64,000 nucleotides of DNA from Escherichia coli (GCF_001677475.2 NZ_CP015229.1), one strand, 5' to 3'; counted from the first letter of the stretch, positions 778 through 29,440 are shown. The notes: generated by a model from the sequence alone, not told the origin. Numbers and translations are program-made.

Positions 778-786
778 CAAATTCAA

Positions 787-3198: not shown

Positions 3199-4536
3199 TT
3201 AATCTTTGCTTATTGGTGCATCTAAGGGATACGGGTTTTTATGCAGCCTGTTGTAATTCAGCGCATACATGGCGGTGATGACCATCAGGGTGACAAATGA
3301 CCACATAACCTCTTTCGCCCCGGACCCCACAACGGCCCAAATGCAGTAGAGGAAGGCAATGGTAGTAACAGCCAGATATGCCGGGCGTGCTTTACCAAAG
3401 TGACCGTGGCCGAGCAGCAGTAACGCCGCACAGGTGTAAAGATATGGCACCAGTGTAAAGATGACCGAGACGGAAGAAACCAGACCGAACTCTTTGGTCG
3501 CGTTTGGTGAAATGCTGCTGAGCTGGAAGATGGTCATCAAAATACCGACGATAATCAGCCCCGCCACTGGCGTACCCGCTTTATTTACACGGGCAAAAAT
3601 CGGTGGGAACAGTCCGTCATCGGCAGCGGCTTTCGCCGTTTGACCCGCCAGCAATGTCCAGCCGCCCAGTGAACCTAAGCAACCCGCAGCTGCGCAGAAG
3701 GAAACAATGGCCCCGGCGGTGTCACCCAACGCCATCCGTGCGGCATCACCGAATGGCGAGGCAGAAACGCGCAGTGCGGCATTAGGGATCATCCCCATAA
3801 TCGCGGTGGTGGAGAGTACATAGCAAACGGCGGCAATCAATACCCCACCAATGGTGGCGATAGGGACATTGCGTTTCGGGTTTTTCACCACACCTGCGGC
3901 AACGGAGGCACTTTCCACACCGATGAACGACCACAGCGTAACGTTAAGGGTACTTTGAATTGCACCGAAGGTGCCCAGGCCGCTGACGTTCCATGCCGCC
4001 ATATAGGTTTCACCACGGAACCAGAACCAGCCAAATACGGCAATCCCGACGATGGGGATCAGCGCCAGCACGGTGGCAACGGCCTGCACGCGGGTGATCA
4101 TTTTCGGACCGACAATGTTCAGCAGGACGAAGATCCACAGCACCACGACGCAGGTGATGGTTAATACCAGTGGATCTTTCAGAATCGGGAAGAAGTAACT
4201 TAAATATCCTACGCCAATGACCACCATGGCGATATTGCCGATCCAGCAGGCCAGCCAGTAGAGGACGTTGGTTTGATAACCGAGAAACGGGCCAAAGCAG
4301 CGGCGGGCGTAAGCGTAAGAACCACCAGGACTTGGGTCGAGGAACGACATTTTGGCGTATACCATCGAGAGCCCCAGCGCACCGATAATCGTCACCAACC
4401 ATCCATAAATGGCAATCCCGCCAGTGGAGGCCAGGTTTGCAGGTAACAGAAAAACACCTGACCCCATAATATTCCCCGACACCATCAGGGTGACGGGGAT
4501 TAAGCCCACTTTGTGAGCATCAGCATCCGAAGACAT
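3199..4536 (-). CDS. adiC: Arginine:agmatine antiporter AdiC, 445 aa
   Basis: Protein [36 protein letters not shown]... recognised as AdiC (APC family). Confidence 0.95.
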
Positions 4537-4672
4537 AATTAAACTCCTGCGAAGGCGAGCTTCGTGACAATAAATTACGTCATATCATACGCCTGCATTC
4601 GATAGTTGAATTATTATCGACCGGGTTATCGCTGATGCCGTTATTAATATAGCTCTTCGTTAAGGTTAAAAA

Positions 4673-5434
4673 TCAGGCGACAGTGCGTTCTCTGTGCTGA
4701 CTAACATAATGCAGCGGCGTCATACCGTAGAAGTCTTTAAAGACAGAAATAAAGTACGACGTACTGTTGTAGCCGCAGGACTGTGATACCTGAGAGATAT
4801 TTTTACCGTCCATCATTAATTCATTTACGGCATAACGCATGCGGCAGGTGGTGATTATTTGGCTATAACTGGTGTTTTCGCTTTTCAGCTTTTTCTTTAA
4901 CAGACTCGGGCTAAGACATAAACAACTGGCTACCATACTAAGATTCCAGTCTTTGTGGATATCGCTTTCAATAATTTGATAAACGCTGTCACTTACACAA
5001 TTACGTAACATATACATCATTAATGAAAGGAATTTTTTACTGTCGAGAAAACGGGATAGCACAGTGAATAATAATGCGCGTGTTCGTTCCTTTTCTGACT
5101 CAGTTTCAGCGGGCATCATGCTGTGTTGCGCGGCAACGCGAAAGACGTCTGGCGTCAGGCATGGCAGGGTGAGGATGGGCGTAGCACTACGTTGCCATAC
5201 TGGTATTTGCGAGAGATCTTTATTCAGAAACCGGAGGTAATCTTTGATGATGTCGTGACTAATATGAGCAACCAAAGTGTTATTAAGAGAGGAGACGTCG
5301 ATAATATTATTTTCACAATTTAATAACGCCATATGGTTAGCTTTAAGGCTAATAGGTTCTTTCCCATTCACCCTTATCCAGACATCTTTTTCAGTCAATA
5401 AAACAATACAAGGTTGGTCGCTGCAAATCCTCAT
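4673..5434 (-). CDS. adiY: AraC-family regulator AdiY, 253 aa
   Basis: Protein recognised as AdiY; C-terminal AraC-type HTH region; lies between adiA and adiC. Confidence 0.92.
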   Translation of the reverse strand: MRICSDQPCIVLLTEKDVWIRVNGKEPISLKANHMALLNCENNIIDVSSLNNTLVAHISHDIIKDYLRFLNKDLSQIPVWQRSATPILTLPCLTPDVFRVAAQHSMMPAETESEKERTRALLFTVLSRFLDSKKFLSLMMYMLRNCVSDSVYQIIESDIHKDWNLSMVASCLCLSPSLLKKKLKSENTSYSQIITTCRMRYAVNELMMDGKNISQVSQSCGYNSTSYFISVFKDFYGMTPLHYVSQHRERTVA

Positions 5435-5612
5435 ACATGTACTCCTGAGTGCGAATAAAAGACCAGTTCTCGCTAAAGCAAAGCGATACCGGGAAATGGT
5501 TATATAATTGTATGATGAATATAAACATGCATAAAAATAACGAGTTTTACTAATATTACAAATTTTTATAGTAATTTCTCATGTACATATTTTTTTACAG
5601 GGTAAATAACAG

Positions 5613-5641
5613 GCAAAAAAAAGCGCGGGGTGGGGCCGCGC
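5613..5641 (-). terminator. Putative rho-independent terminator downstream of adiA
   Basis: GC-rich hairpin GCGCGG..CCGCGC at 5623..5641, followed on the minus strand by a run of eight T (plus-strand A-run 5615..5622). Confidence 0.6.
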
Positions 5642-5758
5642 AAAAAGTATGACATTTTTGTTTGCAGCAATTTTTATGAAAACGTTGCCATACTCAAAAG
5701 GCCTAAGGCCAGGCGGCGTAATGTTATTTAAACAATTACGCCTTCAGCGGAATAGTGG

Positions 5759-8029
5759 TTACGCTTTCACACACATAACGTGGTAAATACCGTCAATAAT
5801 TTCAGTCCCTTCAGTTTCGTGTTCAAATCCAGGGAAATGATGATCCCAGGATTGCAGCGAGCGTAAATAACTTACTTGCGGACTGTTTTTATCGCCGAAG
5901 TTTTCACCAGACAGCAGCATCGGGATTCCTGGCGGATACGGGATAACTGAGTTTGCCGCAATGCGTCCTGGCAGATTTTCAATGGATACCAGTTCGACAT
6001 TGTTGTCGACAATTGCGTTGTACGCTTCTCGCGGGGTGATTTCCGCCACCGGCAGGCCGGAATAGGCTTCGTTCAACCGTGCGCCAGGGTTGTTTTCTTT
6101 CAGCCAGGCAAACATGGTGTCACCCAGATCGTGAATCCCCATGTTCGCGTAAGTGTCAGGATATTGTTCAACAAGTTCCGGCATCACCTGCGCCAGCGGT
6201 GTGTTGGCGTCATAGTGGCGTTTGAAGGAGCAAAGGGTGTTAACCAGAGTCCCCCATTTCCCACGGGTTACGCCCATAGAGAACAGGAACATAATTTGGA
6301 AGTCAGTGGTGCGGGTAGGCACAATGCCGTGGCGACCAAGCCAGGCAGTGACCAGCGCCGCCGGAACACCGGTTTCTTCCAGTTCACCATCTTCACCCAT
6401 TCCCGGAGCAAGGATGCTGACTTTAATTGGGTCGAGCATACTCCAGTTATCCGGAATATCTTTGAAGCCGTGCCAGCTTTCGCCCGGATGCATTACCCAG
6501 CAGTCCTGAACGGTGGTCAGCAGTTTGGTTGGTGCGTCAGCAAAGTCATAGGTTTTGCCGGTTTGTGGGTCGGTGACGACTTCTTTGTTCCACGGTTTGA
6601 AGAACCAGCTACCGTCAGCGGTGAACTCTTTATACAGCCGCGCCATCGCCTGACGGAAATCAACCGCTTCGTCGATCACTTCCTGCGTCAGTGACAGGCC
6701 GCTGTTGCCGTCCATCATCGACACCGCCACGTCGTTGGATGCGCAGATGGCATACAGCGGGGAGGTGGTGGCATGCATCATGTAGGCCTGGTTGAAGCGG
6801 GAGAAGTTAATCGCCCCACGACCTTCACGTACATGAATATAAGAAGCCTGTGAAAGCGCATTCAGCAGTTTGTGGGTGGAATGGGTGGCGAAAACAGTAG
6901 GACCGTTGTGATCGCCAGGTTCGCCGCGCATGGCATAGTGATCGGCATAGATCGGGTTGAAACGTGCATAGCCGTACCAGGCTTCGTCAAAGTGCAGACG
7001 ATCGGAGGTTTTTTCCAGCAGATCCTGCGCTTCTTTAGCGTTATAACACACGCCGTCATAGGTGCAGTTGGTCACCACGCAGTAAGACGGTTTTTGCCCG
7101 GCTTTGTCTTTGGTCAGCGGGCTTTCACTGATTTTCTTCTGCAAGGTTTCAGGTTGCATTTCTTGCGGATAGATTGGCCCGATAATGCCGTAGCGGTTGC
7201 GGCTTGGCACCATGTAGACCGGTTTCGCGCCTGTCAGCATCAAGCCTTGTTCGATGGATTTATGGCAGTTACGGTCAACGACCACGACATCGTTATCGGT
7301 CATGCAAGCCTGCATGATGGTGCGGTTAGAGCCGGAAGTACCGACGACTACCGACCAGGAGCGATCGGCACCAAATACGCGTGCGGCATATTTTTCGCTT
7401 TCGCCAAATGCGCCAGTATGGTCAAGCAAAGAACCGAGGGAAGTTCGTTCGATGCCCATGTCGGTGCGGAACAGGTTTTCACCATAGTAGTCATGGTAGA
7501 AACGTCCGGCGGGTGTTTTGGTAAAACCAACGCCACCCTGGTGGCCTGGCGCTGCCCAGGAATATTCATGGATGTCGCTATATTTCATCAGCGCGCTGAA
7601 CAGTGGCGGCAACAGTTGCTGGCGGTAGCGGGTCATCGCGGCAACGGCGCGTCCGGCGATAAAGTCGGCGGTATCTTCCAGAATCCAGGCGAATTCATCG
7701 ACAAGCTCCAGCAGATCCCGGTCCATTGCGGCGAGGGCTTTTTCCCGATCGCCCAACAGGAAGACCGGCACGTTTTGTTGGCGCTCATGAAGCTTACCGA
7801 TCAATTGTCTGACGTTTTGATGTTCGTCCGGATGTTCCATTTGATAGCTGAACATCAGGCAGTCAATGGCTTCGTTTGAAGAGAGAATGGCAAAACCATC
7901 ATCAAAGGAGGTGGATTTAATCACGGTAACATTTTGCTGGCTTAAAGCATCTGCCAGACGCTCAACGGCGTTACCGACCCAGGTGTCTTGATGGAGAAAC
8001 TCGCTTTCAACAATTAATACTTTCATCAT
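5759..8029 (-). CDS. adiA: Biodegradative (acid-inducible) arginine decarboxylase AdiA
   Basis: Protein MMKVLIVESEFLHQDTWVGNAVERLADALS... recognised as AdiA; true start is either of the two adjacent ATG codons. Confidence 0.95.
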   Translation of the reverse strand: MMKVLIVESEFLHQDTWVGNAVERLADALSQQNVTVIKSTSFDDGFAILSSNEAIDCLMFSYQMEHPDEHQNVRQLIGKLHERQQNVPVFLLGDREKALAAMDRDLLELVDEFAWILEDTADFIAGRAVAAMTRYRQQLLPPLFSALMKYSDIHEYSWAAPGHQGGVGFTKTPAGRFYHDYYGENLFRTDMGIERTSLGSLLDHTGAFGESEKYAARVFGADRSWSVVVGTSGSNRTIMQACMTDNDVVVVDRNCHKSIEQGLMLTGAKPVYMVPSRNRYGIIGPIYPQEMQPETLQKKISESPLTKDKAGQKPSYCVVTNCTYDGVCYNAKEAQDLLEKTSDRLHFDEAWYGYARFNPIYADHYAMRGEPGDHNGPTVFATHSTHKLLNALSQASYIHVREGRGAINFSRFNQAYMMHATTSPLYAICASNDVAVSMMDGNSGLSLTQEVIDEAVDFRQAMARLYKEFTADGSWFFKPWNKEVVTDPQTGKTYDFADAPTKLLTTVQDCWVMHPGESWHGFKDIPDNWSMLDPIKVSILAPGMGEDGELEETGVPAALVTAWLGRHGIVPTRTTDFQIMFLFSMGVTRGKWGTLVNTLCSFKRHYDANTPLAQVMPELVEQYPDTYANMGIHDLGDTMFAWLKENNPGARLNEAYSGLPVAEITPREAYNAIVDNNVELVSIENLPGRIAANSVIPYPPGIPMLLSGENFGDKNSPQVSYLRSLQSWDHHFPGFEHETEGTEIIDGIYHVMCVKA

Positions 8030-8224
8030 TGCTTACCCGGTTATGAAGGAATCTTCGTTGCGGGCAAGTATCTTCCGGCCTTTTCGGGCTGTAAAGCGCG
8101 TGAAAAATAAACATTTTTGAAATATTTGTTTTTATAAACAATATGTTATGTGATTATTTTAAATTATTTTCACTGCTTATTATCGACGGCTAAACTATTT
8201 TTTTGGCTGATACTGATATCGTCT

Positions 8225-9133
8225 TTAGCCGGGAAACGTCTGGCGGCGCTGTTGGCTAAGTTTGCGGTATTGTTGCGGTGACATGCCGACATATTTGCCG
8301 AACGTGCTGTAAAAACGGCTACTCGAACGAAAGCCTGCCGTCAGGGCAATATCGAGAATACTTTTATCGGTATCGCTCAGTAACGCGCGAACGTGGTTGA
8401 TGCGCATCGCGGTTATGTACTGTTTCATCGTCAATTGCATGACCCGCTGGAATATCCCCATTGCATAGTTGGCGTTAAGTTTGACGTGCTCAGCCACATC
8501 GTTGATGGTCAGCGCCTGATCATAGTTTTCGGCAATAAAGCCCAGCATCTGGCTAACATAAAATTGCGCATGGCGCGAGACGCTGTTTTTATGTGTGCGC
8601 GAGGTTTTATTGACCAGAATCGGTTCCCAGCCAGAGAGGCTAAATCGCTTGAGCATCAGGCCAATTTCATCAATGGCGAGCTGGCGAATTTGCTCGTTCG
8701 GACTGTTCAATTCCTGCTGCCAGCGGCGCACTTCAAACGGACTAAGTTGCTGTGTCGCCAGTGATTTGATCACCATACCGTGAGTGACGTGGTTAATCAG
8801 GTCTTTATCCAGCGGCCAGGAGAGAAACAGATGCATCGGCAGATTAAAAATCGCCATGCTCTGACAGGTTCCGGTATCTGTTAGTTGGTGCGGTGTACAG
8901 GCCCAGAACAGCGTGATATGACCCTGATTGATATTCACTTTTTCATTGTTGATCAGATATTCCACATCGCCATCGAAAGGCACATTCACTTCGACCTGAC
9001 CATGCCAGTGGCTGGTGGGCATGATATGCGGTGCGCGAAACTCAATCTCCATCCGCTGGTATTCCGAATACAGCGACAGCGGGCTGCGGGTCTGTTTTTC
9101 GTCACTGCTGCACATAAACGTATCTGTATTCAT
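8225..9133 (-). CDS. melR: AraC-family melibiose operon activator MelR, 302 aa
   Basis: Protein recognised as MelR; divergent from melAB. Confidence 0.95.
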   Translation of the reverse strand: MNTDTFMCSSDEKQTRSPLSLYSEYQRMEIEFRAPHIMPTSHWHGQVEVNVPFDGDVEYLINNEKVNINQGHITLFWACTPHQLTDTGTCQSMAIFNLPMHLFLSWPLDKDLINHVTHGMVIKSLATQQLSPFEVRRWQQELNSPNEQIRQLAIDEIGLMLKRFSLSGWEPILVNKTSRTHKNSVSRHAQFYVSQMLGFIAENYDQALTINDVAEHVKLNANYAMGIFQRVMQLTMKQYITAMRINHVRALLSDTDKSILDIALTAGFRSSSRFYSTFGKYVGMSPQQYRKLSQQRRQTFPG

Positions 9134-9282
9134 GGAGGACTCTCTTTCCTAGAATATCAGAATTATGGCAGGAGTGAGGGAGGATGACTGCGAGTGGGAG
9201 CACGGTTTTCACCCTCTTTTCAGAGAGGCGAGGGGACTGTCCGAGCATCATGAGGCCGAAAACTCTGCTTTTCAGGTAATTT

Positions 9283-9338
9283 ATTCCCATAAACTCAGAT
9301 TTACTGCTGCTTCACGCAGGATCTGAGTTTATGGGAAT
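9283..9338 (+). promoter_or_regulatory. melAB promoter core: two 18-bp MelR target sites as a perfect inverted repeat (9283..9300 and 9321..9338) flanking a 20-bp spacer with a weak CRP-like half-site
   Basis: ATTCCCATAAACTCAGAT and its exact reverse complement ATCTGAGTTTATGGGAAT separated by 20 bp; the 38-bp centre-to-centre spacing and the distance to melA fit the described MelR site 1/site 2 arrangement at -100.5 and -62.5. Confidence 0.7.
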
Positions 9339-9415
9339 GCTCAACCTGGAAGCCGGAGGTTTTCTGCAGATTCGCCTGCCATGATGAAGTTATTCAAGCA
9401 AGCCAGGAGATCTGC

Positions 9416-10771
9416 ATGATGTCTGCACCCAAAATTACATTTATCGGCGCTGGTTCGACGATTTTCGTTAAAAATATTCTTGGTGATGTGTTCCATCGCG
9501 AGGCGCTGAAAACGGCGCATATTGCCCTGATGGACATTGACCCCACCCGCCTGGAAGAGTCGCATATTGTGGTGCGTAAGCTGATGGATTCAGCAGGGGC
9601 CAGCGGCAAAATCACCTGCCACACCCAACAGAAAGAAGCCTTACAGGATGCCGATTTTGTCGTGGTGGCATTTCAGATTGGCGGTTATGAACCTTGCACG
9701 GTGACTGATTTCGAGGTCTGTAAGCGGCATGGTCTGGAACAAACCATTGCCGATACGTTGGGGCCGGGCGGTATTATGCGCGCGCTACGTACCATTCCGC
9801 ATCTGTGGCAAATTTGCGAGGACATGACGGAAGTCTGCCCCGATGCCACCATGCTCAACTACGTTAACCCAATGGCGATGAATACCTGGGCGATGTATGC
9901 CCGCTATCCGCATATCAAACAGGTCGGGCTGTGCCATTCGGTGCAGGGAACGGCGGAAGAGCTGGCGCGTGATCTCAATATCGACCCGGCTACGCTGCGT
10001 TACCGTTGCGCAGGTATCAACCATATGGCGTTTTACCTGGAACTGGAGCGTAAAACCGCCGACGGCAGTTACGTGAATCTCTACCCGGAACTGCTGGCGG
10101 CTTATGAAGCAGGGCAGGCACCGAAGCCGAATATTCATGGCAATACTCGCTGCCAGAATATTGTGCGCTACGAAATGTTCAAAAAGCTGGGCTACTTCGT
10201 CACGGAATCGTCAGAACATTTTGCTGAGTACACGCCGTGGTTTATTAAGCCAGGTCGTGAGGATTTGATTGAGCGTTATAAAGTACCGCTGGATGAGTAC
10301 CCGAAACGCTGCGTCGAGCAGCTGGCGAACTGGCATAAAGAGCTGGAGGAGTATAAGAACGCCTCCCGGATTGATATTAAACCGTCACGGGAATATGCCA
10401 GCACAATCATGAACGCTATCTGGACTGGCGAGCCGAGTGTGATTTACGGCAACGTCCGTAACGATGGTTTGATTGATAACCTGCCACAAGGATGTTGCGT
10501 GGAAGTAGCCTGTCTGGTTGATGCTAATGGCATTCAGCCGACCAAAGTCGGTACGCTACCTTCGCATCTGGCCGCTCTGATGCAAACCAACATCAACGTA
10601 CAGACGCTGCTGACCGAAGCCATTCTTACGGAAAATCGCGACCGTGTTTACCACGCCGCAATGATGGACCCGCATACTGCCGCCGTGCTGGGCATTGACG
10701 AAATATATGCTCTTGTTGACGACCTGATTGCCGCCCACGGCGACTGGCTGCCAGGCTGGTTGCACCGTTAA
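9416..10771 (+). CDS. melA: Alpha-galactosidase MelA (NAD/Mn-dependent), 451 aa
   Basis: Protein MMSAPKITFIGAGSTIFVKNILGDV... recognised as MelA. Confidence 0.95.
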   Translation: MMSAPKITFIGAGSTIFVKNILGDVFHREALKTAHIALMDIDPTRLEESHIVVRKLMDSAGASGKITCHTQQKEALQDADFVVVAFQIGGYEPCTVTDFEVCKRHGLEQTIADTLGPGGIMRALRTIPHLWQICEDMTEVCPDATMLNYVNPMAMNTWAMYARYPHIKQVGLCHSVQGTAEELARDLNIDPATLRYRCAGINHMAFYLELERKTADGSYVNLYPELLAAYEAGQAPKPNIHGNTRCQNIVRYEMFKKLGYFVTESSEHFAEYTPWFIKPGREDLIERYKVPLDEYPKRCVEQLANWHKELEEYKNASRIDIKPSREYASTIMNAIWTGEPSVIYGNVRNDGLIDNLPQGCCVEVACLVDANGIQPTKVGTLPSHLAALMQTNINVQTLLTEAILTENRDRVYHAAMMDPHTAAVLGIDEIYALVDDLIAAHGDWLPGWLHR

Positions 10772-10873
10772 AACGCGACTAAACGCTACTGCGCCGGGGG
10801 ATTTATTCCGGCGCACACCTCTGACGATACCAATAACAGAAGGCGGGCGTTGGTAACAACGACCCGATACCCT

Positions 10874-12295
10874 ATGAGCATTTCAATGACTACAAAACTC
10901 AGTTATGGATTTGGAGCGTTCGGGAAGGATTTTGCGATCGGCATTGTGTATATGTACCTCATGTATTACTACACCGATGTCGTCGGGCTGTCTGTGGGTT
11001 TGGTCGGTACTTTGTTTCTGGTGGCGAGGATCTGGGATGCTATTAACGATCCGATTATGGGATGGATTGTAAATGCTACGCGATCGCGATGGGGCAAGTT
11101 CAAACCCTGGATCCTGATCGGTACGTTGGCAAACTCTGTAATCTTATTTCTCCTCTTTAGTGCGCATCTGTTTGAAGGTACTACTCAGATTGTCTTTGTT
11201 TGCGTGACCTACATCCTCTGGGGCATGACTTACACCATTATGGATATTCCCTTCTGGTCGCTGGTTCCAACCATAACGCTCGATAAACGTGAGCGCGAAC
11301 AACTGGTTCCTTATCCGCGTTTTTTTGCCAGTCTGGCAGGCTTTGTTACGGCAGGTGTGACGCTACCATTTGTTAATTATGTCGGCGGTGGCGATCGGGG
11401 ATTTGGCTTTCAGATGTTCACTCTGGTACTGATCGCCTTTTTTATTGTTTCAACCATCATCACTCTGCGCAATGTGCATGAAGTCTTTTCGTCAGACAAT
11501 CAACCGTCTGCTGAAGGAAGCCATCTGACACTTAAAGCCATCGTTGCGCTTATTTATAAAAACGATCAGCTTTCATGCCTCTTGGGTATGGCTCTTGCTT
11601 ATAATGTAGCCAGCAATATTATTACCGGCTTTGCTATCTATTATTTCTCATATGTTATCGGTGATGCGGATTTGTTCCCCTATTATCTGTCGTATGCGGG
11701 AGCTGCTAACCTGGTGACGTTAGTATTCTTCCCACGCTTAGTTAAATCATTATCCCGACGCATTTTATGGGCCGGAGCATCTATTCTTCCGGTGTTAAGC
11801 TGTGGTGTTCTCCTGTTAATGGCATTAATGAGCTATCACAACGTCGTCCTCATTGTGATTGCGGGTATCTTGCTGAATGTGGGAACGGCGCTTTTCTGGG
11901 TATTACAGGTCATCATGGTGGCAGATACCGTTGATTACGGTGAATATAAACTGCACGTACGCTGTGAAAGCATCGCTTACTCCGTGCAGACTATGGTGGT
12001 GAAGGGCGGTTCAGCCTTTGCGGCTTTTTTCATTGCGGTTGTGTTAGGGATGATTGGCTATGTACCGAATGTTGAACAGTCTACGCAAGCCCTATTAGGT
12101 ATGCAGTTTATTATGATTGCTCTACCGACTCTGTTTTTCATGATAACGCTGATTCTCTACTTCCGTTTCTATCGCCTCAATGGTGACACGCTGCGCAGGA
12201 TCCAGATCCATCTGCTGGATAAATATCGCAAAGTACCGCCCGAGCCTGTTCATGCTGATATTCCGGTCGGTGCAGTGAGTGATGTGAAAGCCTGA
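10874..12295 (+). CDS. melB: Melibiose:Na+ symporter MelB, 473 aa
   Basis: ORF 10850..12295 recognised as MelB; the recognised N-terminus [16 protein letters not shown] starts at ATG 10874 (track ORF begins at an upstream TTG). Confidence 0.92.
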
Positions 12296-20088: not shown

Positions 20089-20385
20089 ATGGAAGGTAAA
20101 AACAAGTTCAATACTTATGTTGTTTCTTTTGATTATCCATCATCTTATTCCTCAGTGTTCTTAAGGTTAAGATCATTGATGTATGATATGAATTTCTCCT
20201 CTATCGTGGCTGATGAATATGGGATACCACGACAATTGAATGAAAATTCCTTCGCAATAACGACATCGTTAGCCGCAAGTGAAATCGAAGATTTAATCAG
20301 GCTTAAATGCTTAGACTTACCGGATATTGATTTTGACCTCAACATTATGACAGTTGATGACTATTTCCGTCAGTTTTACAAGTAG
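20089..20385 (+). CDS. ghoS: Type V antitoxin GhoS (sequence-specific endoribonuclease), 98 aa
   Basis: Protein MEGKNKFNTYVVSFDYPSSYSSVFLRLRSLMYDMNFSS... recognised as GhoS (YjdK); AGGAG SD upstream. Confidence 0.85.
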   Translation: MEGKNKFNTYVVSFDYPSSYSSVFLRLRSLMYDMNFSSIVADEYGIPRQLNENSFAITTSLAASEIEDLIRLKCLDLPDIDFDLNIMTVDDYFRQFYK

Positions 20386-20412
20386 CCAGGAAGGATAAGA
20401 AGAACATAAAAA

Positions 20413-20586
20413 ATGGCACTATTCTCTAAAATATTAATTTTTTATGTGATTGGTGTGAACATATCCTTTGTCATTATCTGGTTTATCTCACATGAGAAAA
20501 CACATATTCGTTTACTTAGTGCATTCCTGGTCGGAATAACCTGGCCAATGAGTCTGCCTGTGGCATTACTTTTTTCTCTCTTTTAG
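20413..20586 (+). CDS. ghoT: Small membrane toxin GhoT, 57 aa (absent from the ORF track because it is under 60 aa)
   Basis: ATG 20413 to TAG 20584..20586 encodes MALFSKILIFYVIGVNISFVIIWFISHEKTHIRLLSAFLVGITWPMSLPVALLFSLF, hydrophobic, 27 nt downstream of ghoS on the same strand. Confidence 0.8.
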   Translation: MALFSKILIFYVIGVNISFVIIWFISHEKTHIRLLSAFLVGITWPMSLPVALLFSLF

Positions 20587-20704
20587 GAGCTGTAGTTGAG
20601 TGGACCCGCTGGTTATCTTGAAACGAAGCGTCTCTCCTCAAAACTGGATTTGCGGAACGACGAACGAAGCAGTCGCCTGACTGCTTCGTTCATTAAAGTG
20701 AAAT

Positions 20705-22222
20705 TTATTTCTGTGGGCGCATCGCCGGGAAGAGAATAACGTCGCGAATAGTATGACTGTTTGTAAACAGCATAATCATTCGGTCGATACCAATACCCAG
20801 ACCAGCGGTTGGCGGCAGACCATATTCCAGCGCAGTCACGTAATCTTCGTCATAGAACATGGCTTCGTCGTCACCTGCAGCTTTAGCGTTAACCTGTTCC
20901 TGGAAACGTTCAGCCTGATCTTCTGCATCGTTTAATTCGCTAAAACCATTACCGATTTCACGACCACCGATGAAGAATTCAAAACGGTCGGTGATTTCCG
21001 GGTTAACATCATTACGGCGCGCCAGCGGGGACACTTCTGCCGGATATTCCGTAATAAAGGTTGGCTGAATCAGATGTGCTTCTGCCACTTCATCAAAGAT
21101 CTCCGTAACAATACGTCCCAGACCCCAGCTTTTCTCTACCGTAATTCCGATAGATTCAGCTAATGCTTTAGCGGCATCAAAATTATCCAGGTCGGCCATA
21201 TCGGTTTCTGGACGATATTTTTTGATTGCTTCGCGCATGGTGAGTTTTTCAAACGGTTTGCCGAAATCAAACACATGCTCGCCATAAGTGACTTTAGTGG
21301 TACCCAGAACCTCTTGTGCCAGGGTGCGGAACAGTGACTCTGTCAGTTCAATCAAATCGTGGTAATCCGCATACGCCATGTAGAGTTCCATCATTGTGAA
21401 CTCAGGATTATGGCGAACAGAAATGCCTTCATTACGGAAGTTACGGTTGATTTCGAATACCCGTTCAAAACCGCCTACAACCAGACGTTTCAGATACAGC
21501 TCCGGCGCAATACGCAGGTACATATCTAAATCCAGAGCGTTATGATGGGTAATAAACGGGCGAGCAGATGCCCCACCTGGAATTACCTGCATCATCGGGG
21601 TTTCTACTTCCATAAAGCCGCGCGCGACCATGAACTGGCGGATAGCGGCCAGAATTTTTGAACGGACAACAAACGTTTGACGGGATTTATCGTTAGCGAT
21701 GAGGTCCAGATAACGTTGACGATAACGGACTTCCTGATCCTGCAGACCATGGAATTTATCTGGTAAAGGACGTAGTGCTTTTGTCAGCAGGCGCAACTCA
21801 GTACAGTGAATGGAAAGCTCACCCGTTTGCGTCTTAAACAGCGTACCGCGGGCACCGATAATGTCACCCAGATCCCATTTTTTAAACTGATCGTTATAAA
21901 CACCTTCTGGCAGGCTATCTCGTGCGACGTACAGTTGAATACGGCCACCGACATCCTGCAACGTTACAAAGGAGGCTTTCCCCATGATACGACGGGTCAT
22001 CATTCGGCCAGCAACCGAGACTTCAATGTTTAAGGATTCCAGTTCCTGGTTATCCTTCGCATCAAACTCTTCGTGCAACTGGTCAGAGGTATGGTCGCGG
22101 CGAAAATCATTGGGAAACGCCACACCTTGCTGACGTAGTGCCGCCAGCTTTTCGCGGCGATTTCTCAGTTCATCGTTAAAATCAATAGCCTCATTGGCTC
22201 CCCGTGTTTCTCGTTCAGACAT
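20705..22222 (-). CDS. lysU: Lysyl-tRNA synthetase, heat-inducible isoform LysU, 505 aa
   Basis: ORF 20705..22249 recognised as LysU; the recognised N-terminus [15 protein letters not shown] starts at ATG 22222..22220. Confidence 0.92.
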
Positions 22223-22458
22223 TTTGGTTCCTCTAAATCCAGCTTTCAATTTAGCGTAGATAAAGAGACAGATCGGTACACTGTATTATCTGCCTCGACT
22301 ATTAATAACTCAGTTTATCTTATCGAAACTAACGCTTACCTCAAGTTGATATCACTAATAAATAACCATCAAAATGGTTTAAATGACTTATTAATCTCGA
22401 TTTATTAGTGTGATAAACTAAAAGTTAGTTTATTCATAACCAATTGTTTTTACGACAG

Positions 22459-23916
22459 TTAATCGTTGCTCTCCTGTATCATATTTGTCGGCGTGCTAAA
22501 CAGATAACGGGCAGCAAAGGCCAATACCACGATGATCGCGACACAAGCCAACGTCCACTCTCCCATCTGAGAAAAGAATCGCTGGTAAGCTGCAATTGCC
22601 ATTCCGCTAATTTGCGACTCTGTCGTCTGCTGTGCCACGACGCCTGCCAGCCAGTTGGCGACCGCGCCTGTTGCCAGCATATAAATACCGGTTAATACGC
22701 CAGACATTTTCAGACGCGTGATTTGCGCAATCGCCACCGGGTCAATAAAGAGTTCGGCAAAGCCCATTAGCGCCAGCCCGGATATCATCACGCCCATTGA
22801 CGCTTGACCGTCAGCCGCTGCATGTCGGGCATCAAATGCCAGCAACATAAAGCCACAAGCCATCAGCAATAAGCCAAAGGCAAACCTCAGCCAGACGCGC
22901 AATGTTGAGTTGCCGTGGCTTTCTGGCGACGCCAGCCAGGCCAGAACAACCCCAGCGAGCATCACCGCAATTGCGTTCACTGACTGGAATAGTGCAGTAG
23001 GTACTTCAATATTGAATGCCTGACGATTCACAAAGCGATCGATAAACAAACTGATGGTACTGCCGCCCTGTTGTGCCAGTACCCAGAACAACGTCCCGAC
23101 AAACATCAACAATACAATTTGCCAAAGAGCACGGCGGTGTTCGGGGAATTTGATCATCATGCGGGCAATGATTTGTGCGGCAATGAGGCAAACGATCGCC
23201 AGCAAATATCCCGACCAGTCGTTCTCCAGCAGCAGGGTAAAAAATACTGGGGCTAAACAGAGCATCACCACTAACCAGCTCCATACTGGTAAGGCAAATT
23301 TCACGCTAGTGAGCGCTTTCTTATCCATACTACGCGTGGACTGGAAATGACGATGACCGCTTAAGAAAATCAACAAACCGATAAACATGCCGCCACCCGC
23401 AAGGGCAAAGCCAACATGCCATCCATACCACTGAGCAGCCAGGCCGCAGGCGATGGGGGCGGCGATAGAACCGATATTGCCCGCAGCATACAGCAGCGAA
23501 AAACCGCCATCACGTCGATGATCGTTCTCGTCGTAGAGCTCGCCAAGCAAACAGCTGATGTTTGATTTGAATAAACCGTAGCCACAAATAATGATTGCCA
23601 GCGCCAGATACAGGCTAAAGGTTGAATTTGTATCAATGCCCAGCACTACATGGCCAAGGGTCATTAACAGCGCGCCGGCAATTACCGCAGTACGATTGCC
23701 GAGCAGGCGGTCGGCAAGCCAGCCGCCGAGAATAGGGGTAACGTAAACCAGAGATGCATATGCGCTGAACAGGCTGATGGCATGGTTATCATCAAAACCA
23801 AGCTGATGGGTGAGATAGAGAATGAGCAAGGCACGCATGCCGTAAAAACTGAAGTACTCCCAGATTTGGATCGCCACGATATAGTATATCGCGCGCGGCT
23901 GTGAGGGTGTTTTCAT
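22459..23916 (-). CDS. dtpC: Di/tripeptide:H+ symporter DtpC (YjdL), 485 aa
   Basis: Protein [36 protein letters not shown]... recognised as a POT-family transporter. Confidence 0.92.
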
Positions 23917-23932
23917 GTGTTCTCCTTATGAG

Positions 23933-23961
23933 CAAAAAAGGGAAGTGGCAAGCCACTTCCC
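23933..23961 (-). terminator. Putative rho-independent terminator downstream of cadA
   Basis: Hairpin GGGAAGTGG-CAAG-CCACTTCCC (23940..23961), followed on the minus strand by six T. Confidence 0.65.
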
Positions 23962-23974
23962 TTGTACGAGCTAA

Positions 23975-26122
23975 TTATTTTTTGCTTTCTTCTTTCAATA
24001 CTTTAACGGTATAGCGGCCATCAGCCTGACGGTATGCACCGTGAATATCGGTTTCAAAGCCCGGATAGTGAGCGCCGATTTCACACAGCATCTGCAGGAA
24101 CTCCAGAACCGGACGGCTTTCTTCGGTGATCATTTCTCCCGGCATTACCAGAGGAACTCCCGGCGGATACGGAAGGATCATATTGGCGTTAATACGACCG
24201 ACCATTTCGTCGAGGTAAACTTCTTCGGTCATACCGTGCAGCTCTTTCTGGAACGCAGCATACGGAGTCATTACCATCGTCGGCAGCACTTCAAATGCGC
24301 GATACATCAGATCCGGCAGATTGTGGTGAACAATCAGTTTGTGGATATTCTGAGCCAGTTCCTGAATACGCATGTTTTCATAGAATTCAGGATCTTCACG
24401 ATACAGAGACGGCAGCATGTTTTTCACACGCAGGTTCAGGTCGAACGCACGTTTGAAGTCAGTCAGAGCACGCAGCAGGCTCAGTGCTTTGGTCTTATCG
24501 ATACCGATGCTGAACAGGAACAGCAGGTTATACGGACCGGTTTTCTCAACAACGATGCCATGTTCGTCGAGGTATTTCGCCACGATGCTGGCCGGAATAC
24601 CAAAGTCGCTCATGGTGCCGTCTTTTTCCATCCCCGGAGTCAGCAGGGTGACTTTGATCGGGTCAAGATACATGTGCTCGTTATCGATGTTTTTGAAGCC
24701 GTGCCAGGTGCTGTCAGAACGCAGCGGCCAGCATTCAGTCGTATCGATATGATCCGGCTGCCAAACATCAAAGAACCAGCCATCAGATTCCGTTCTCAGA
24801 CGTTTGATCTCTTTACGGAATTTGATCGCACGTTCAATGGAACCGTTGATCAGACGCTTACCAGCATTACCTTTCATCATCGCCGCTGCGGTTTCAGTGG
24901 ACGCCACGATACCGTAGTGCGGAGAAGTGGTGGTGTGCATCATGTAGGCTTCGTTAAAGGTTTCTTCGTTTACGTCACCTTTAACGTGGATCATGGAAGC
25001 CTGAGAGAACGCCGCCAGCAGTTTGTGAGTAGACTGGGTTTCGTAAATCACTTTCCCTTCTACACGGCCACCGCTCATACCGCATTTACCTTCGTAAATC
25101 GGTGAGAAGTTGGTGTAAGGCACCCACGCGGAGTCAAAGTGGATGGATTTCACATCCAGTGTTTTCTTGATGAAGTCGGTGTTGTACAGCAGACCATCAT
25201 AGGTAGAGTTGGTAATTACAGCATGTACCGGCCAGGTTGCGTTTGGTGTTTCTTTCACGCGCTTAGCAATGGTAGCGTGCTGGAATTCACTCTGTGGGAT
25301 ACCACCAAGAATACCGTAAGCGTTACGGGTCGGGCGGAAATAGATTGGCGTAACATCGCTCATCATCATCAGGTGGGTCAGCGATTTGTGGCAGTTACGG
25401 TCAATCAGAATGGTGCTGCCTGCCGGAGCAGAGTACATACCAACAATTTTGTTCGCAGTGGAAGTACCGTTGGTCACCATGTAGCTGCGGTCTGCGTTAA
25501 AGACGCGAGCGATATACTGTTCTGCTTCTTTGTGTGGACCACTGTGATCCAGCAGAGAACCCAGTTCAGATACTGAAATGGAAATATCAGATTTCATGGT
25601 GTTCGGACCAAAGAAATCATAGAACAGGCTACCTACCGGGCTTTTCTGGAATGCAGTACCGCCCATGTGACCAGGAGTACAGAAAGTATATTTACCTTCA
25701 CGAACATATTTAAACAGTGCTTTGGTCAGCGGAGGCAGAATAGTGTTGATATATTCGTCAGTGGTCTGCTTGATCTTGTTAGCAATATCTTCAGCAGCAC
25801 CCAGCGCATATTCAAAGAAGCTAATCTGTAAACGCAGGTCATTCAGGCTTACATCGAGAGTGGAATACGTATTAGCGAACGCGTACAACGGCAGGTTCTC
25901 GTTCATTTTGCTAATTTCTTCGCACAGCTCGAGATTATATTTATCCCAGTCAAAAATAACGCCGCACAGACGCGCATTGTTTTCGATCAGTTTTAATAAG
26001 TCGTCACGGTCGTTCGGGTAAACAATCTGGAAGTTCAGACGTTCAAGCGCGCGATGAAGTTCACGGATGGGTTCTTCTTTAAAATAAACCCCCATGTGAT
26101 TCAATATTGCAATAACGTTCAT
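23975..26122 (-). CDS. cadA: Inducible lysine decarboxylase CadA, 715 aa
   Basis: ORF 23975..26161 recognised as CadA; the recognised N-terminus MNVIAILNHMGVYFKEEP starts at ATG 26122..26120, which has a GGAG SD at good spacing. Confidence 0.95.
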   Translation of the reverse strand: MNVIAILNHMGVYFKEEPIRELHRALERLNFQIVYPNDRDDLLKLIENNARLCGVIFDWDKYNLELCEEISKMNENLPLYAFANTYSTLDVSLNDLRLQISFFEYALGAAEDIANKIKQTTDEYINTILPPLTKALFKYVREGKYTFCTPGHMGGTAFQKSPVGSLFYDFFGPNTMKSDISISVSELGSLLDHSGPHKEAEQYIARVFNADRSYMVTNGTSTANKIVGMYSAPAGSTILIDRNCHKSLTHLMMMSDVTPIYFRPTRNAYGILGGIPQSEFQHATIAKRVKETPNATWPVHAVITNSTYDGLLYNTDFIKKTLDVKSIHFDSAWVPYTNFSPIYEGKCGMSGGRVEGKVIYETQSTHKLLAAFSQASMIHVKGDVNEETFNEAYMMHTTTSPHYGIVASTETAAAMMKGNAGKRLINGSIERAIKFRKEIKRLRTESDGWFFDVWQPDHIDTTECWPLRSDSTWHGFKNIDNEHMYLDPIKVTLLTPGMEKDGTMSDFGIPASIVAKYLDEHGIVVEKTGPYNLLFLFSIGIDKTKALSLLRALTDFKRAFDLNLRVKNMLPSLYREDPEFYENMRIQELAQNIHKLIVHHNLPDLMYRAFEVLPTMVMTPYAAFQKELHGMTEEVYLDEMVGRINANMILPYPPGVPLVMPGEMITEESRPVLEFLQMLCEIGAHYPGFETDIHGAYRQADGRYTVKVLKEESKK

Positions 26123-26201
26123 AGTCATATCTCCAGGTAAAAAAGGCCCCTCCCAACACATGGGACAAAATGAAAGGAGGAGCCTCGGAAAATACTTTTA
26201 A

Positions 26202-27536
26202 TTAATGTGCGTTAGACGCTGTGTGGTTATCCATTGAGTGACTCTGGCGCTCGTGCATTTTGCGAGCGTAGAACATCAGGATAATCAGGCTGACGATGAA
26301 GGTACCTGCCAGCTCGAAGGAGCTTGCGCCCATTAGCGCGATGAAGCAGAACACGCAACCCAGTACAGAGCAGATCAGGCTGACAAAGTTGCGGATGTTA
26401 ACGCCTTCAAAACGAATCAGGTCAACGCAAGAGTAGAAGTACGGCAGCATAGTCAGCAGTACTGCGATACCGGTCAGTTCACCGAACAGGTCAGATGCTT
26501 TACCACCGGCAGAGTTCATCAGAGTGATGAGGATCATCAGGGCAGTCATTTTCACTGCAGCCAGCAGCAGACCTTTTTTCGGAATACCGTTGCTGTCGAC
26601 TTCACCATAAACTTTCGGGAAGTTACCGTCGTTAGCGGCACGTACACCTGCCTGGCCTACCAACATCATCCAGGAGCCCAGAGAAGTCAGGCACGCAAAG
26701 GCGGTGAATGCAGAAACCAGCGGCGCAGCCCAGTTACCGAGGATAGTTGAAGCACTGATTGCAAACGGAGCACCGGAAGCCGCCATTACAGAAGACGGAT
26801 ACATACCGGAAAGCACCTGAGTCGCAGCGATGTAAACAATACCTGCTAAACCAGTACCCAGCATGGTTGCCAGCGGAACGGTACGTTTCGGGTTTTTAAC
26901 CATACCAGTACTTACAGCTGCGGATTCAACACCCACGAAGGCCCACAGGCAGAGCAGAATACTTTTAATGATCGCATGACCATCGGTGGTATCCGCAGTA
27001 TTCCAGTTAGCAGCATAAGTCGCAGCATCAAACCAATGCCAGCCAACAATAGCTGTCATAACCACAGGAATAAGAACCAGCACCAGACCAATAGTGGTTA
27101 AACGGCTTACCCAGGTACCGCCGAGCATATTTACAAAGGTAAATACCCAGACGATAGCAATACAGGCGATACCCGCCGGAACAGGATCATTTAATACTGG
27201 GAAGAAGGTGGAAAGATAAGATACAGCGGTAATACCAATCGCCAGGTTACCAATCCAGTTAGCATGGTAATAAAGAACACCTGTCTGAAAACCAAATGCA
27301 GGAGAAATTTCTCCGGCATAAGCAATTGGGCCACCTTGTTGCGGGTTTTTTGTTGCCAGTCGGGCATATACATACGCCAGCGACATTGCACCAATAATAG
27401 AGATAATCCAACCCCAGATAGCAATACCACCGATACTTGCTAGGTTCGCAGGTAATAATGCAATACCGCTCCCCATCATATTACCGGCAACAACACCGGT
27501 ACAGGCAAATAGCCCGATCTTCTTGGCAGAACTCAT
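26202..27536 (-). CDS. cadB: Lysine:cadaverine antiporter CadB, 444 aa
   Basis: Protein [34 protein letters not shown]... recognised as CadB (APC family, paralogous to AdiC). Confidence 0.95.
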   Translation of the reverse strand: MSSAKKIGLFACTGVVAGNMMGSGIALLPANLASIGGIAIWGWIISIIGAMSLAYVYARLATKNPQQGGPIAYAGEISPAFGFQTGVLYYHANWIGNLAIGITAVSYLSTFFPVLNDPVPAGIACIAIVWVFTFVNMLGGTWVSRLTTIGLVLVLIPVVMTAIVGWHWFDAATYAANWNTADTTDGHAIIKSILLCLWAFVGVESAAVSTGMVKNPKRTVPLATMLGTGLAGIVYIAATQVLSGMYPSSVMAASGAPFAISASTILGNWAAPLVSAFTAFACLTSLGSWMMLVGQAGVRAANDGNFPKVYGEVDSNGIPKKGLLLAAVKMTALMILITLMNSAGGKASDLFGELTGIAVLLTMLPYFYSCVDLIRFEGVNIRNFVSLICSVLGCVFCFIALMGASSFELAGTFIVSLIILMFYARKMHERQSHSMDNHTASNAH

Positions 27537-27790
27537 GCTCTTCTCCTAATTTCATTTTTGAATTTGGAGTCCGGGTCATGATGTATAACTATTTCCTGAC
27601 CAGACCAAACTGGCGCTAAGATTACTCACGAAAAAAGGATTAATCCTAAAGATTAGGTGAAATAACACAAAAGTTTCTGTAAGTGAGAACTTGAGGTTTT
27701 TTATTAACACATCAGGATCGCAAGTTGATATCATGAAAAGATAAACATTCAATGTTTACAATAGATTGCGTGACGTCTTCTGGTTAAATT
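27537..27790 (-). promoter_or_regulatory. cadBA promoter region (Pcad), expected to hold the CadC binding sites
   Basis: AT-rich intergenic region immediately upstream of cadB and downstream of cadC; individual sites not resolved by eye. Confidence 0.45.
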
Positions 27791-27794
27791 TATG

Positions 27795-27827
27795 TAATAA
27801 AAATTATGCGGCAAATAAATTGCCGCA
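27795..27827 (-). terminator. Putative terminator downstream of cadC
   Basis: Hairpin TGCGGCAA-ATAAA-TTGCCGCA (27807..27827) followed on the minus strand by a T-rich run. Confidence 0.5.
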
Positions 27828-27901
27828 ACATATTATACCAATAAAAACATACAAAAACTCAACAACAAATATTCCCGGGCATGAATCAACCCGGGATTTG
27901 C

Positions 27902-29440
27902 TTATTCTGAAGCGAGAAATTTGTCGAGATAAGGTACAACATAAGGAACAGAAGTCTGGAATATACCATTTTCAATCCAGTAAAGGGTGTTTGCCCCTGG
28001 GCGTAAATTAAAGGCGGTGAGATATGCATCAGCTGCTTCCCGGTTCATCCCCTTCATTTCATAAACCTTGCCAAGCAACACATAATTTAGCCAGGACATT
28101 TCAAGATCAATGCCAGTATTTATCGCCTGGTAAGACTCATCTGTTTTACCTTTTACCAGAGCACTGACCGCTTTTATTTGATATATAATGGACAGGTTAT
28201 TCAATTCCGGTAGTGTAACAATGTTATTTATTTCTGTGTTCAGTGCTGCTAATTGTTTTTCATCCAAAGGATGTTGAGAATGGCGCACGATATCAACTAA
28301 TGCTTTTTCTGCTCTCGCGTAGGTAAATTCTGGGGATGATTGAACAATCTCACCTAATAATTCACTGGCACGATTCAATGATTTATCATCGCCATGCAGT
28401 AAATAATCATGTGCCTGATAAAAATTAGTTAATAACGCACCACGATGAGGCAAAATTTGCTGGAGCATCTCCTGCATTCGTTGTGGCCACGGTTGGTTTA
28501 ACGCTTTTGATAAACTCTCCAGTAAATCATTTTGAATCGCCAGCTGATTACCGTTAGTGATGACATAACGTTTATCCAGCATGGTTGAACCATCTGCATT
28601 GTCTACCAATTTTACCGACATAAAGCATTGTTGAGCACGGTATTGGCGCTGATTAACAAACGCAATAGATAATGTTTTACCGGAACTGCTCGGTTCATCA
28701 ATGTTGTAGTTGATTTTGTCATGCACCATAAAGGTGGAGAAGGTGTTAAGTGATGTCGCCACCAAATCACCCACACCTATCGCGTAAGAGAGCTGATATG
28801 GGGAACTCCAGCTGTTACAACTCTTATTCACCATATTAATGTCAATATCGCGTGGATTGAGCAAAATACGCGATTTGCTCATCGGAAGACGTGTATCAAG
28901 ACTTGAAAACGCTACCAGTGCTACACAGATACCTAACGACAACAGGAAAAAAAACCATACCCAAAAGGTAGTGAATCGTTTGCTTTTAACTGGGGATTGT
29001 TCAGGTGGCGTTGCGGTGTTTTGAATGTTAAGACTGTGGGAGGGAGAATCTGTGGCAGGAACCGCCTCTGGTATAGGGGGAGGCGAAGATAGCATTATTT
29101 CCTCTCCCTCTTCTTCGCTGTACCAGATAACCGGCACCATTAATTTATAGCCGCGCTTTGGTACAGTAGCGATATAGACAGGACTATCTTCATCATTATC
29201 TTTTAATGACTTACGTAGTTCTGAGATACTCTGCGTCACAACGTGATTGGTGACAATACTTCTCTTCCAGACATTATCGATAAGTTCATCCCTGCTAAGT
29301 ACTTCGCCACTGTGTTGAGCAAAGAAAACCAGAAGATCGATTAATCTCGGCTCAAGGGTAAGTTGACGCCCATTGCGGCTAATTTGGTTTATGGACGGAG
29401 TAACAAGCCATTCGCCAACGCGAACTACAGGTTGTTGCAT
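27902..29440 (-). CDS. cadC: Membrane-integrated transcriptional activator CadC (ToxR-like), 512 aa
   Basis: Protein MQQPVVRVGEWLVTPSINQISRNGRQLTLEPRLIDLLV... recognised as CadC. Confidence 0.95.
   Translation of the reverse strand: MQQPVVRVGEWLVTPSINQISRNGRQLTLEPRLIDLLVFFAQHSGEVLSRDELIDNVWKRSIVTNHVVTQSISELRKSLKDNDEDSPVYIATVPKRGYKLMVPVIWYSEEEGEEIMLSSPPPIPEAVPATDSPSHSLNIQNTATPPEQSPVKSKRFTTFWVWFFFLLSLGICVALVAFSSLDTRLPMSKSRILLNPRDIDINMVNKSCNSWSSPYQLSYAIGVGDLVATSLNTFSTFMVHDKINYNIDEPSSSGKTLSIAFVNQRQYRAQQCFMSVKLVDNADGSTMLDKRYVITNGNQLAIQNDLLESLSKALNQPWPQRMQEMLQQILPHRGALLTNFYQAHDYLLHGDDKSLNRASELLGEIVQSSPEFTYARAEKALVDIVRHSQHPLDEKQLAALNTEINNIVTLPELNNLSIIYQIKAVSALVKGKTDESYQAINTGIDLEMSWLNYVLLGKVYEMKGMNREAADAYLTAFNLRPGANTLYWIENGIFQTSVPYVVPYLDKFLASE

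Follow-up and report, generated by a model that had tools for sequence, protein, structure and literature searches.

The closeness of the paralogous adi and cad acid-resistance modules in Escherichia coli is most probably secondary

Introduction

Why do two paralogous acid-resistance systems, the arginine module adiA-adiY-adiC and the lysine module cadC-cadB-cadA, lie side by side on the chromosome of Escherichia coli? We addressed this question in a stretch of 64,000 nucleotides of E. coli DNA (GCF_001677475.2, NZ_CP015229.1; hereafter the window, with positions counted from its first letter), in which the two modules together span 26.2 kb and are separated by a gap of 15.9 kb (8029 to 23975). 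In systems of this kind, a wing-domain pyridoxal phosphate (PLP) decarboxylase (AdiA or CadA) converts arginine or lysine to agmatine or cadaverine, using one cytoplasmic proton. An antiporter of the amino acid-polyamine-organocation (APC) family (AdiC or CadB) exchanges the product for new substrate, and a dedicated low-copy activator (the cytoplasmic AraC-type AdiY or the membrane-bound ToxR-like CadC) induces expression when the pH is low. The two loci have long been described, together with their mechanisms, regulators and map positions, and the phylogeny of the family has been published; all of this is known biology. An earlier note on this DNA read the co-location as the trace of an ancient duplication or as a clustering of acid-stress functions. 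In our comparison with other genomes, the linkage appeared only in E. coli and its nearest relatives, and we consider it highly probable that the closeness of the two modules is secondary, with neutral chance in cassette placement as the simplest explanation, and not a relic of duplication.

Results

Two intact modules on an ordinary E. coli chromosome

The window is ordinary E. coli chromosome. It is colinear with K-12 MG1655 from position 4,332,496 onward, at 98.65% identity over its first 40.7 kb, and the two loci have K-12 map positions of about 93.4 and 93.9 min. Megablast searches matched the stretch 3199-12000 in 5417 of the 5426 complete E. coli genomes and the stretch 12000-32000 in 5425 of them, mostly at 95-99% identity. 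At least 80% of the adi-mel stretch is kept in one place in 5389 of these genomes, and at least 80% of the stretch from mel to dsbD in 4589. The adi-cad arrangement is therefore the E. coli norm. All six module genes are intact and lie on the minus strand.

3199-4536, minus strand: adiC, arginine:agmatine antiporter of the APC family, 445 residues (NCBIfam, Pfam, RefSeq name)
4673-5434, minus strand: adiY, AraC-type activator, 253 residues (HTH_AraC, HTH_18; RefSeq name)
5759-8029, minus strand: adiA, biodegradative arginine decarboxylase, open reading frame (ORF) of 756 residues (NCBIfam, Pfam)
23975-26122, minus strand: cadA (ldcI), inducible lysine decarboxylase, 715 residues (NCBIfam, Pfam)
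26202-27536, minus strand: cadB, lysine:cadaverine antiporter, 444 residues (NCBIfam, Pfam)
27902-29440, minus strand: cadC, membrane-integrated ToxR-like activator, 512 residues (NCBIfam, Pfam)

The gene identities given in the earlier note are borne out, with NCBIfam, Pfam and RefSeq in agreement. End-to-end matches above the model cut-offs were obtained with NCBIfam equivalog models for AdiC (NF007929; 892 bits, cut-off 574), AdiA (NF011603; 1707 bits, cut-off 1167), CadB (NF007754; 920 bits, cut-off 585) and CadC (NF007540; 756 bits, cut-off 400), and with a subfamily model for CadA (NF011929; 1628 bits, cut-off 1056). AdiA is 100% identical to the cluster representative P0001, which represents 12442 member sequences. 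The regulators, too, are separate and dedicated, as the note had said. AdiY, encoded between adiA and adiC, carries a double HTH_AraC domain at its C terminus (PF00165 and PF12833, HTH_AraC/HTH_18), and CadC joins an N-terminal winged-helix domain (Trans_reg_C, PF00486) to a periplasmic sensor domain (CadC_C1, PF18500). No AdiY-specific NCBIfam model matched AdiY, the top match being GadX, under its cut-off; the name AdiY was taken from near-identical DNA annotated in RefSeq. All gene names at both loci are those that RefSeq gives to E. coli DNA of 99% identity.

The adi locus is identical in genes, order, strand, spacing and flanks (melR, eptA) to adiA-adiY-adiC of K-12 (b4117-b4115), the arginine system AR3. 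Nothing of substance differs, the longest adiA ORF starting one codon upstream of the RefSeq start, from which the protein has 755 residues. The cad locus corresponds to cadC-cadB-cadA of K-12 (b4133-b4131), the lysine system AR4, with matching genes and order, dtpC and lysU downstream, and an integrase remnant and the tRNA gene pheU in matching places upstream. The mechanical cadA ORF extends to 26161, and the profile match begins at residue 14 of its product.

Ancient paralogy of the enzymes and antiporters

AdiA and CadA each contain the domains OKR_DC_1_N (wing), OKR_DC_1 (PLP) and OKR_DC_1_C (Pfam, E values from 4e-25 to 1e-200). The S-x-H-K motif of the PLP lysine, here S-T-H-K, is aligned between the two enzymes (HSTHKLLNALSQAS in AdiA, QSTHKLLAAFSQAS in CadA), and AdiC and CadB are both AA_permease_2 proteins (PF13520). 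These features fit the fold-type I PLP decarboxylases and APC antiporters that had been proposed from the sequence. Substrate specificity, decamer formation and low-pH activation of AdiA and CadA are presumably those of the characterised K-12 proteins, with which they share 98-100% identity. Pairwise alignment upheld the paralogy of both pairs, with 36% identity over 740 columns for AdiA and CadA (E = 1e-163) and 38% over 447 columns for AdiC and CadB (BLASTP, E = 3e-100). Judged by these alignments, the two pairs are ancient, distant paralogues.

The remaining family members LdcC, SpeC, SpeF and PotE were taken from K-12 for comparison. There, speF-potE (ornithine decarboxylase and putrescine antiporter) is a third decarboxylase-antiporter module that matches the two protein families, and speF-potE, ldcC and speC lie elsewhere on the chromosome. 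CadA is 69% identical to LdcC and SpeF 68% to SpeC; AdiA is 36% identical to both CadA and LdcC; and AdiA, CadA and LdcC are 31-33% identical to SpeF and SpeC. The closest paralogue of CadA is thus LdcC (69%) and not AdiA (36%). At the family level, the ornithine enzymes stand further from the arginine and lysine enzymes than these do from each other, in agreement with the published phylogeny, which places Ldc and Adc nearer to each other than to Odc, unites LdcI/C, Adc and LdcA in a supported 'LAdc' group with an unresolved trichotomy inside it, and derives ldcC from ldcI within Enterobacteriaceae (PMC6257575).

Among the antiporters, multiple alignment gave 39% identity for AdiC and CadB, 33% for AdiC and PotE, and 29% for CadB and PotE. 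A neighbour-joining tree (300 bootstrap replicates) was computed from the best 150 AdiC-related representatives of 50%-identity clusters, 118 of which were near full length, together with AdiC, CadB and PotE. The AdiC and CadB groups came out as nearest neighbours with a bootstrap value of 0.34. In 56% of the replicates AdiC and CadB fell into a small clade without PotE and the bona fide histidine/histamine antiporter P0131, and in no replicate (0) was AdiC paired with P0131 to the exclusion of CadB. Outside the AdiC group, eight representatives match AdiC (39-42%) as well as or better than E. coli CadB does (39%); one more, P0137, additional to those eight, is CadB's own. On this evidence, a sister relationship of AdiC and CadB is the best estimate, though a weak one. 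The earlier expectation that each pair should consist of mutually closest paralogues fails for CadA and survives in this tentative form for AdiC and CadB; at the level of the enzyme groups, the published trees leave Ldc, Adc and LdcA as a trichotomy (PMC6257575).

The similarity between the modules ends with these two components. AdiY and CadC showed no significant similarity (best E = 0.032 over 24 residues); by this comparison they are unrelated, and the two modules recruited their regulators independently. Furthermore, the order is decarboxylase-regulator-antiporter in adi and regulator-antiporter-decarboxylase in cad. A segmental duplication should leave an identical internal order, yet the decarboxylase comes first in adi and last in cad; it should leave every component homologous, yet AdiY and CadC are not; and linkage should be kept in other lineages with both copies, yet adi and cad lie on different backbones in Salmonella and in Enterobacteriaceae bacterium RIT691, and none of the 57 cadB loci with full flanks (0 of 57; see below) has an adi gene within 10 kb.

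Placement of the two modules in other genomes

The cad genes of the window are followed by two more genes that travel with them in part of the genomes compared.

22459-23916, minus strand: dtpC (yjdL), peptide permease (NCBIfam)
20705-22222, minus strand: lysU, second lysyl-tRNA synthetase (NCBIfam and K-12 annotation)

One genome per species (GTDB representatives) was scanned for CadB, the best 80 of 124 loci were taken with flanks of up to 10 kb, and all window proteins were mapped onto them by tblastn. Among these 80 loci, cadC-cadB-cadA-dtpC is a conserved block, with dtpC present in 50 and cadC in 49, and lysU follows the block in 16 (Escherichia, Klebsiella, Raoultella, Buttiauxella and Pseudescherichia). 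The dcuS-dcuR flank was found at only two loci, both from Escherichia (L007 and L009), and dicD-dsbD at L009 only. No orthologue of adiA, adiY, adiC, mel, fumB or dcuB was found in the scanned cadB loci, 57 of which had both full 10-kb flanks. The site itself differs between genera. At 15 loci the order is glyA-hmpA, cadCBA-dtpC, glnB-glrR-qseG-glrK-purL, a neighbourhood that maps to about 57 min in E. coli; sites of this hmpA/glnB type include those of Salmonella enterica, three Kluyvera species, Citrobacter, Superficieibacter, Pluralibacter and Phytobacter. In Klebsiella pneumoniae, a chaperone-usher fimbrial operon, accompanied by an lpxL-like gene, borders the block on one side and iolE/iolG-like genes border it on the other.

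Even within the genus Escherichia the surroundings change. In E. albertii NBRC 107761 (L008), homology to the window is limited to 20692-29509, that is, the 8.8 kb of lysU-dtpC-cadA-cadB-cadC. Downstream of the block lie yicG-ligB-gmk-rpoZ-spoT, found at about 82 min in E. coli, and upstream a DUF927/toprim mobile element that occurs in 33 of the 5426 E. coli genomes at 95-99.8% identity (flanking stretches 1-4263 and 13000-17498 of L008). We considered this arrangement as proof of cassette transposition and rejected it, as one inversion plus an island at pheU explains it equally well.

The adi module, by comparison, shares its context with Salmonella. Salmonella AdiA (P0002) is 93% identical to that of the window, and the order dcuS-dcuR-dcuB-fumB-melB-melA-melR-adiA-adiY-adiC-eptA-basR-basS-pmrR-proP is that of E. 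coli, with no yjdF counterpart called in the neighbourhood. Beyond dcuS, Salmonella has dmsABC-like and other genes, not lysU-dtpC-cad. Its cadCBA-dtpC unit is like that of E. coli but lies between hmpA and glnB, not beside pheU or dcuSR, and no lysU follows dtpC. In RIT691, the mdh-argR and aaeBAX regions flank adiA-adiY-adiC-hdeA, and the cad locus (L040, matching in strain name) is at hmpA/glnB. Kluyvera cryocrescens has hdeA/hdeD interspersed among the adi genes, and the flanking genes are bapA and yccA-tusE-yccX-rlmI. The adi module thus occupies at least three different chromosomal sites, and Adc has been described as patchily distributed, heavily transferred horizontally and without conserved context (PMC6257575). 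Both adi and cad behave as relocating cassettes, with at least three chromosomal sites across Enterobacteriaceae. Since the adi backbone is shared with Salmonella while the cad site varies between genera, the co-location seems to be restricted to E. coli and its nearest relatives.

Three further observations concern these loci. Acid-chaperone genes hdeA/hdeD lie inside or beside adi in RIT691 (L090, 14794-15132) and K. cryocrescens (L091, 12977-17158); adi with hdeA/hdeD makes a small composite acid-fitness islet, which E. coli does not have at this site. At eight loci (L042, L046, L058, L072, L041 and L044 of Serratia, L062 of Edaphovirga and L059 of 'Citrobacter freundii M-21'), cadC is preceded on the same strand, at a distance of about 0.7-1.5 kb, by an ldcC orthologue, giving ldcC-cadC-cadB-cadA. 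The ldcC products beside cad (for example L046, 4414-6543) are 80-83% identical to K-12 LdcC and 68-75% to CadA, and the arrangement resembles an ldcI/ldcC duplication that has stayed where it arose; the ldcC gene of E. coli is found at 4 min, adjoining accA. Finally, CadB-like antiporters (68-71% identity) occur without a cadA-, adiA- or speF-like decarboxylase within 10 kb at L070-L075, L078 and L079, in Hafnia, Edwardsiella, Pluralibacter and Enterobacillus; in some of these genomes, a normal cadBA is present in addition.

The pheU side of the cad locus

Upstream of cadC, the window holds two features that bear on how the cad genes may have come to this site.

29697-29859 (approximate), minus strand: integrase pseudogene remnant (yjdQ of K-12), mapped from K-12 and RefSeq annotation
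30057-30132, minus strand: pheU, tRNA-Phe(GAA), an island integration hot spot, with its 3' end toward cadC

The reading frames of the cadC-pheU spacer are full of stops, and the integrase label is that of the RefSeq and K-12 pseudogene annotation. With pheU and the remnant, the site presents a tRNA gene at one end and an adjacent integrase, as an island does. No second pheU 3' end (attR) was found in the 64 kb with probes of 18 and 25 nucleotides at up to three mismatches. At L007 (Escherichia sp. MOD1-EC7003; 1-1127), homology stops at window position 30072, inside the pheU 3' end, and gives way to unrelated DNA, as would be expected if an island had integrated at pheU; compared with L007, the present strain has no island there. 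As a side observation, in K-12 two genes, yqgH and yqgA, separate speC from the tRNA-Phe gene pheV, and cadC adjoins the tRNA-Phe gene pheU. That a decarboxylase of this family is found near both Phe-tRNA genes in these K-12 stretches is possibly a coincidence.

Discussion

We propose that the enzyme/antiporter pairs would go back to ancient duplications in the ornithine/lysine/arginine decarboxylase and basic amino acid/polyamine antiporter families, after which the modules would have gained unrelated regulators and different gene orders. The adi module sits in a mel/eptA/dcuSR backbone that Salmonella also has, and the site of the cadC-cadB-cadA-dtpC(-lysU) cassette changes between genera, being in E. 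coli beside pheU and 16 kb from adi. For about five decarboxylase-based acid-resistance loci on a 4.6-Mb chromosome, we estimate the chance of lying within about 20 kb at about 1% per pair, and at roughly 10% for any of about 10 pairs, so that no special explanation is required. Several points weigh against this proposal. The chance figure is a rough calculation of our own, made post hoc. The wider surroundings contain many genes induced by acid or anaerobiosis (adi, fumB, dcuB, dcuSR, lysU, cad, dcuA, aspA, frdABCD), which could hint at selected regional organisation. The view in other genera spans 10 kb on each side of cadB, and linkage of more than 10 kb but less than 100 kb is excluded only for Salmonella and RIT691, where both loci lie on known backbones. 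Moreover, the cadB loci are the best 80 of 124, and the antiporter tree is a neighbour-joining tree only.

The two explanations offered in the earlier note fare less well than the co-location itself, which stands. Had a decarboxylase-antiporter pair been duplicated here, diverged into adi and cad and stayed linked since, the homology of both protein pairs, their congruent similarity patterns (Adi and Cad nearer to each other than to SpeF/PotE) and the neighbouring positions of AdiC and CadB in the tree would follow. Identities of 36-39%, however, imply a split far older than the gene order of Enterobacterales, and no such linkage exists in Salmonella, K. pneumoniae, Kluyvera, Citrobacter, RIT691 or, for that matter, E. 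albertii. The modules also differ in gene order, have unrelated regulators and are separated by 16 kb of unrelated genes, and Adc is reported to be heavily affected by horizontal transfer (PMC6257575). A genuine case looks different, with ldcC of Serratia directly beside cadCBA at 69-75% identity: the truly recent duplicate is the one still adjacent to cad in some genera, unlike the adi-cad proximity, which does not extend beyond E. coli and close relatives. We regard a duplication relic as extremely unlikely, and physical proximity of paralogous modules should not count as evidence of the site of duplication. Selection might instead have kept acid and anaerobiosis genes together for co-regulation (through a chromatin or H-NS domain, or gene dosage) or for co-transfer. 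Within about 45 kb lie adi, fumB, dcuB, dcuSR, lysU, cad, dcuA, aspA and frd, the regulator genes adiY and cadC are both AT-rich (about 41% GC against about 52% in the backbone), and the arrangement is nearly universal in E. coli. Universality within one species, however, is expected from common descent alone, Salmonella uses both systems from sites that correspond to 57 and 93 min in E. coli, distant from each other, and adiA, adiY/adiC, cadC and cadBA are each transcribed as a unit that ends in its own terminator. In addition, single-cell work has shown Cad and Adi to be active in mutually exclusive subpopulations, with different pH thresholds and separate regulators; adi is reported to lack a CadC site, the two systems being coupled only indirectly, via pH (PMC8989999), which argues against a regulatory reason for the proximity. 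Selected clustering is, on balance, improbable, although the many anaerobic and acid-induced genes of the region leave some room for a weak form of it.

The cad genes may also have reached their site as cargo. If cadC-cadB-cadA-dtpC-lysU had come on an integrative element inserted at the pheU 3' end and since decayed, this would account for the layout that runs from the tRNA-Phe 3' end over the integrase remnant to cadC and onward, for the cad cassette lying at other sites in other genera, for the low GC content at both ends of the block (0.40-0.42) and for the unrelated genes beyond dcuS in Salmonella. The L007 homology that ends within the tRNA 3' end likewise points to pheU as an active island site. 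Against this stand the lack of an attR repeat of the pheU 3' end in the window at up to three mismatches, the possibility that the integrase remnant derives from a later, separate island, the ordinary GC content of cadA and cadB (about 0.50), the sufficiency of a simple inversion for the E. albertii difference, and the reported vertical inheritance of ldcI in Enterobacteriaceae (PMC6257575). As a rival account of the locus we hold such a decayed element to be very unlikely. Put as a speculation of its own, that lysU-dtpC-cadA-cadB-cadC (about 20692-29509) is a relocating 'lysine/acid' cassette delivered on an integrative element at pheU, with the adi-cad proximity as its by-product, the idea is unlikely; if it were true, the adi-cad neighbourhood would be a by-product of site-specific integration in the Escherichia lineage. 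In the literature, we found nothing specific on the adi-cad co-location or on a cad/pheU island. The accident of cassette placement thus remains the reading that we prefer.

Transcription units and intergenic features

The ends of the genes and the spacers between them carry the following features.

3145-3174, minus strand: hairpin after adiC, 13-bp stem, -18.8 kcal/mol, z = -6.7, within the 58-bp adiC-eptA spacer
5615-5758, minus strand: adiA 3' untranslated region (3'UTR) of 144 nucleotides with intrinsic terminator, stem 5641-5623, GCGCGG...CCGCGC followed by T8
23938-23963, minus strand: intrinsic terminator of cadBA, 11-bp GC-rich stem followed by T6, -19.3 kcal/mol, z = -4.8
27537-27901, minus strand: cadC-cadB intergenic region (Pcad region), with two terminator-like hairpins 3' of cadC (27896-27873 and 27827-27807)

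We take 27537-27901 to be the Pcad promoter region of cadBA. A strong terminator had been claimed at the end of each module. This holds for cad, with its 11-bp stem and T6 after cadA; the hairpin after adiC (3174-3145) is strong, but its T tract is weak (AATTTTGCTT). Within adi, adiA has a terminator of its own (5641-5623 with T8), and adi is therefore several transcription units and not one operon. The adiA 3'UTR (5615-5758) includes a U-rich stretch, and its terminator is conserved. In Salmonella, the Hfq-dependent, 3'UTR-derived small RNA (sRNA) AdiZ has been mapped to the adiA 3'UTR, and an Escherichia/Shigella homologue cluster exists (PMC12746102). The adiA 3'UTR of the window lies at the position of AdiZ and, going by position only, may correspond to it (PMC12746102). 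AdiZ has so far no Rfam family.

Neighbouring genes and other observations

RefSeq annotation and the ORF list give the gene order basR, eptA, adiC, adiY, adiA, melR, melA, melB, yjdF, fumB, dcuB, dcuR, dcuS; beyond dcuS follow yjdI, yjdJ, ghoS, ghoT, lysU, dtpC, cadA, cadB, cadC, the integrase remnant and pheU, and beyond pheU dicD, dsbD, cutA, dcuA and aspA. The genes between the modules are these.

8225-19167: melR (minus strand), melA and melB (plus), yjdF, fumB, dcuB, dcuR and dcuS (minus), the backbone between the modules, common to Salmonella
19348-20586, plus strand: yjdI, yjdJ, ghoS and ghoT, small genes from dcuS to the cad cassette, with coordinates mapped from K-12 annotation

An Rfam scan of the whole window returned tRNAs and a guanidine-II riboswitch only, with no curated RNA family inside adi or cad. 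The riboswitch (guanidine-II, mini-ykkC; RF01068, 49.3 bits) lies at 44004-44050 on the plus strand, upstream of the guanidinium exporter gene gdx/sugE. Small differences from K-12 were seen elsewhere in the window. Small indels occur near yjeI/yjeJ (40.68 kb and 41.8 kb), the yjeN-yjeO region of K-12 (about 740 bp, K-12 4385304-4386047) is represented by about 190 bp at 52497-52685, and the spacing of the three tRNA-Gly genes at 59.0-59.4 kb differs from that of K-12.

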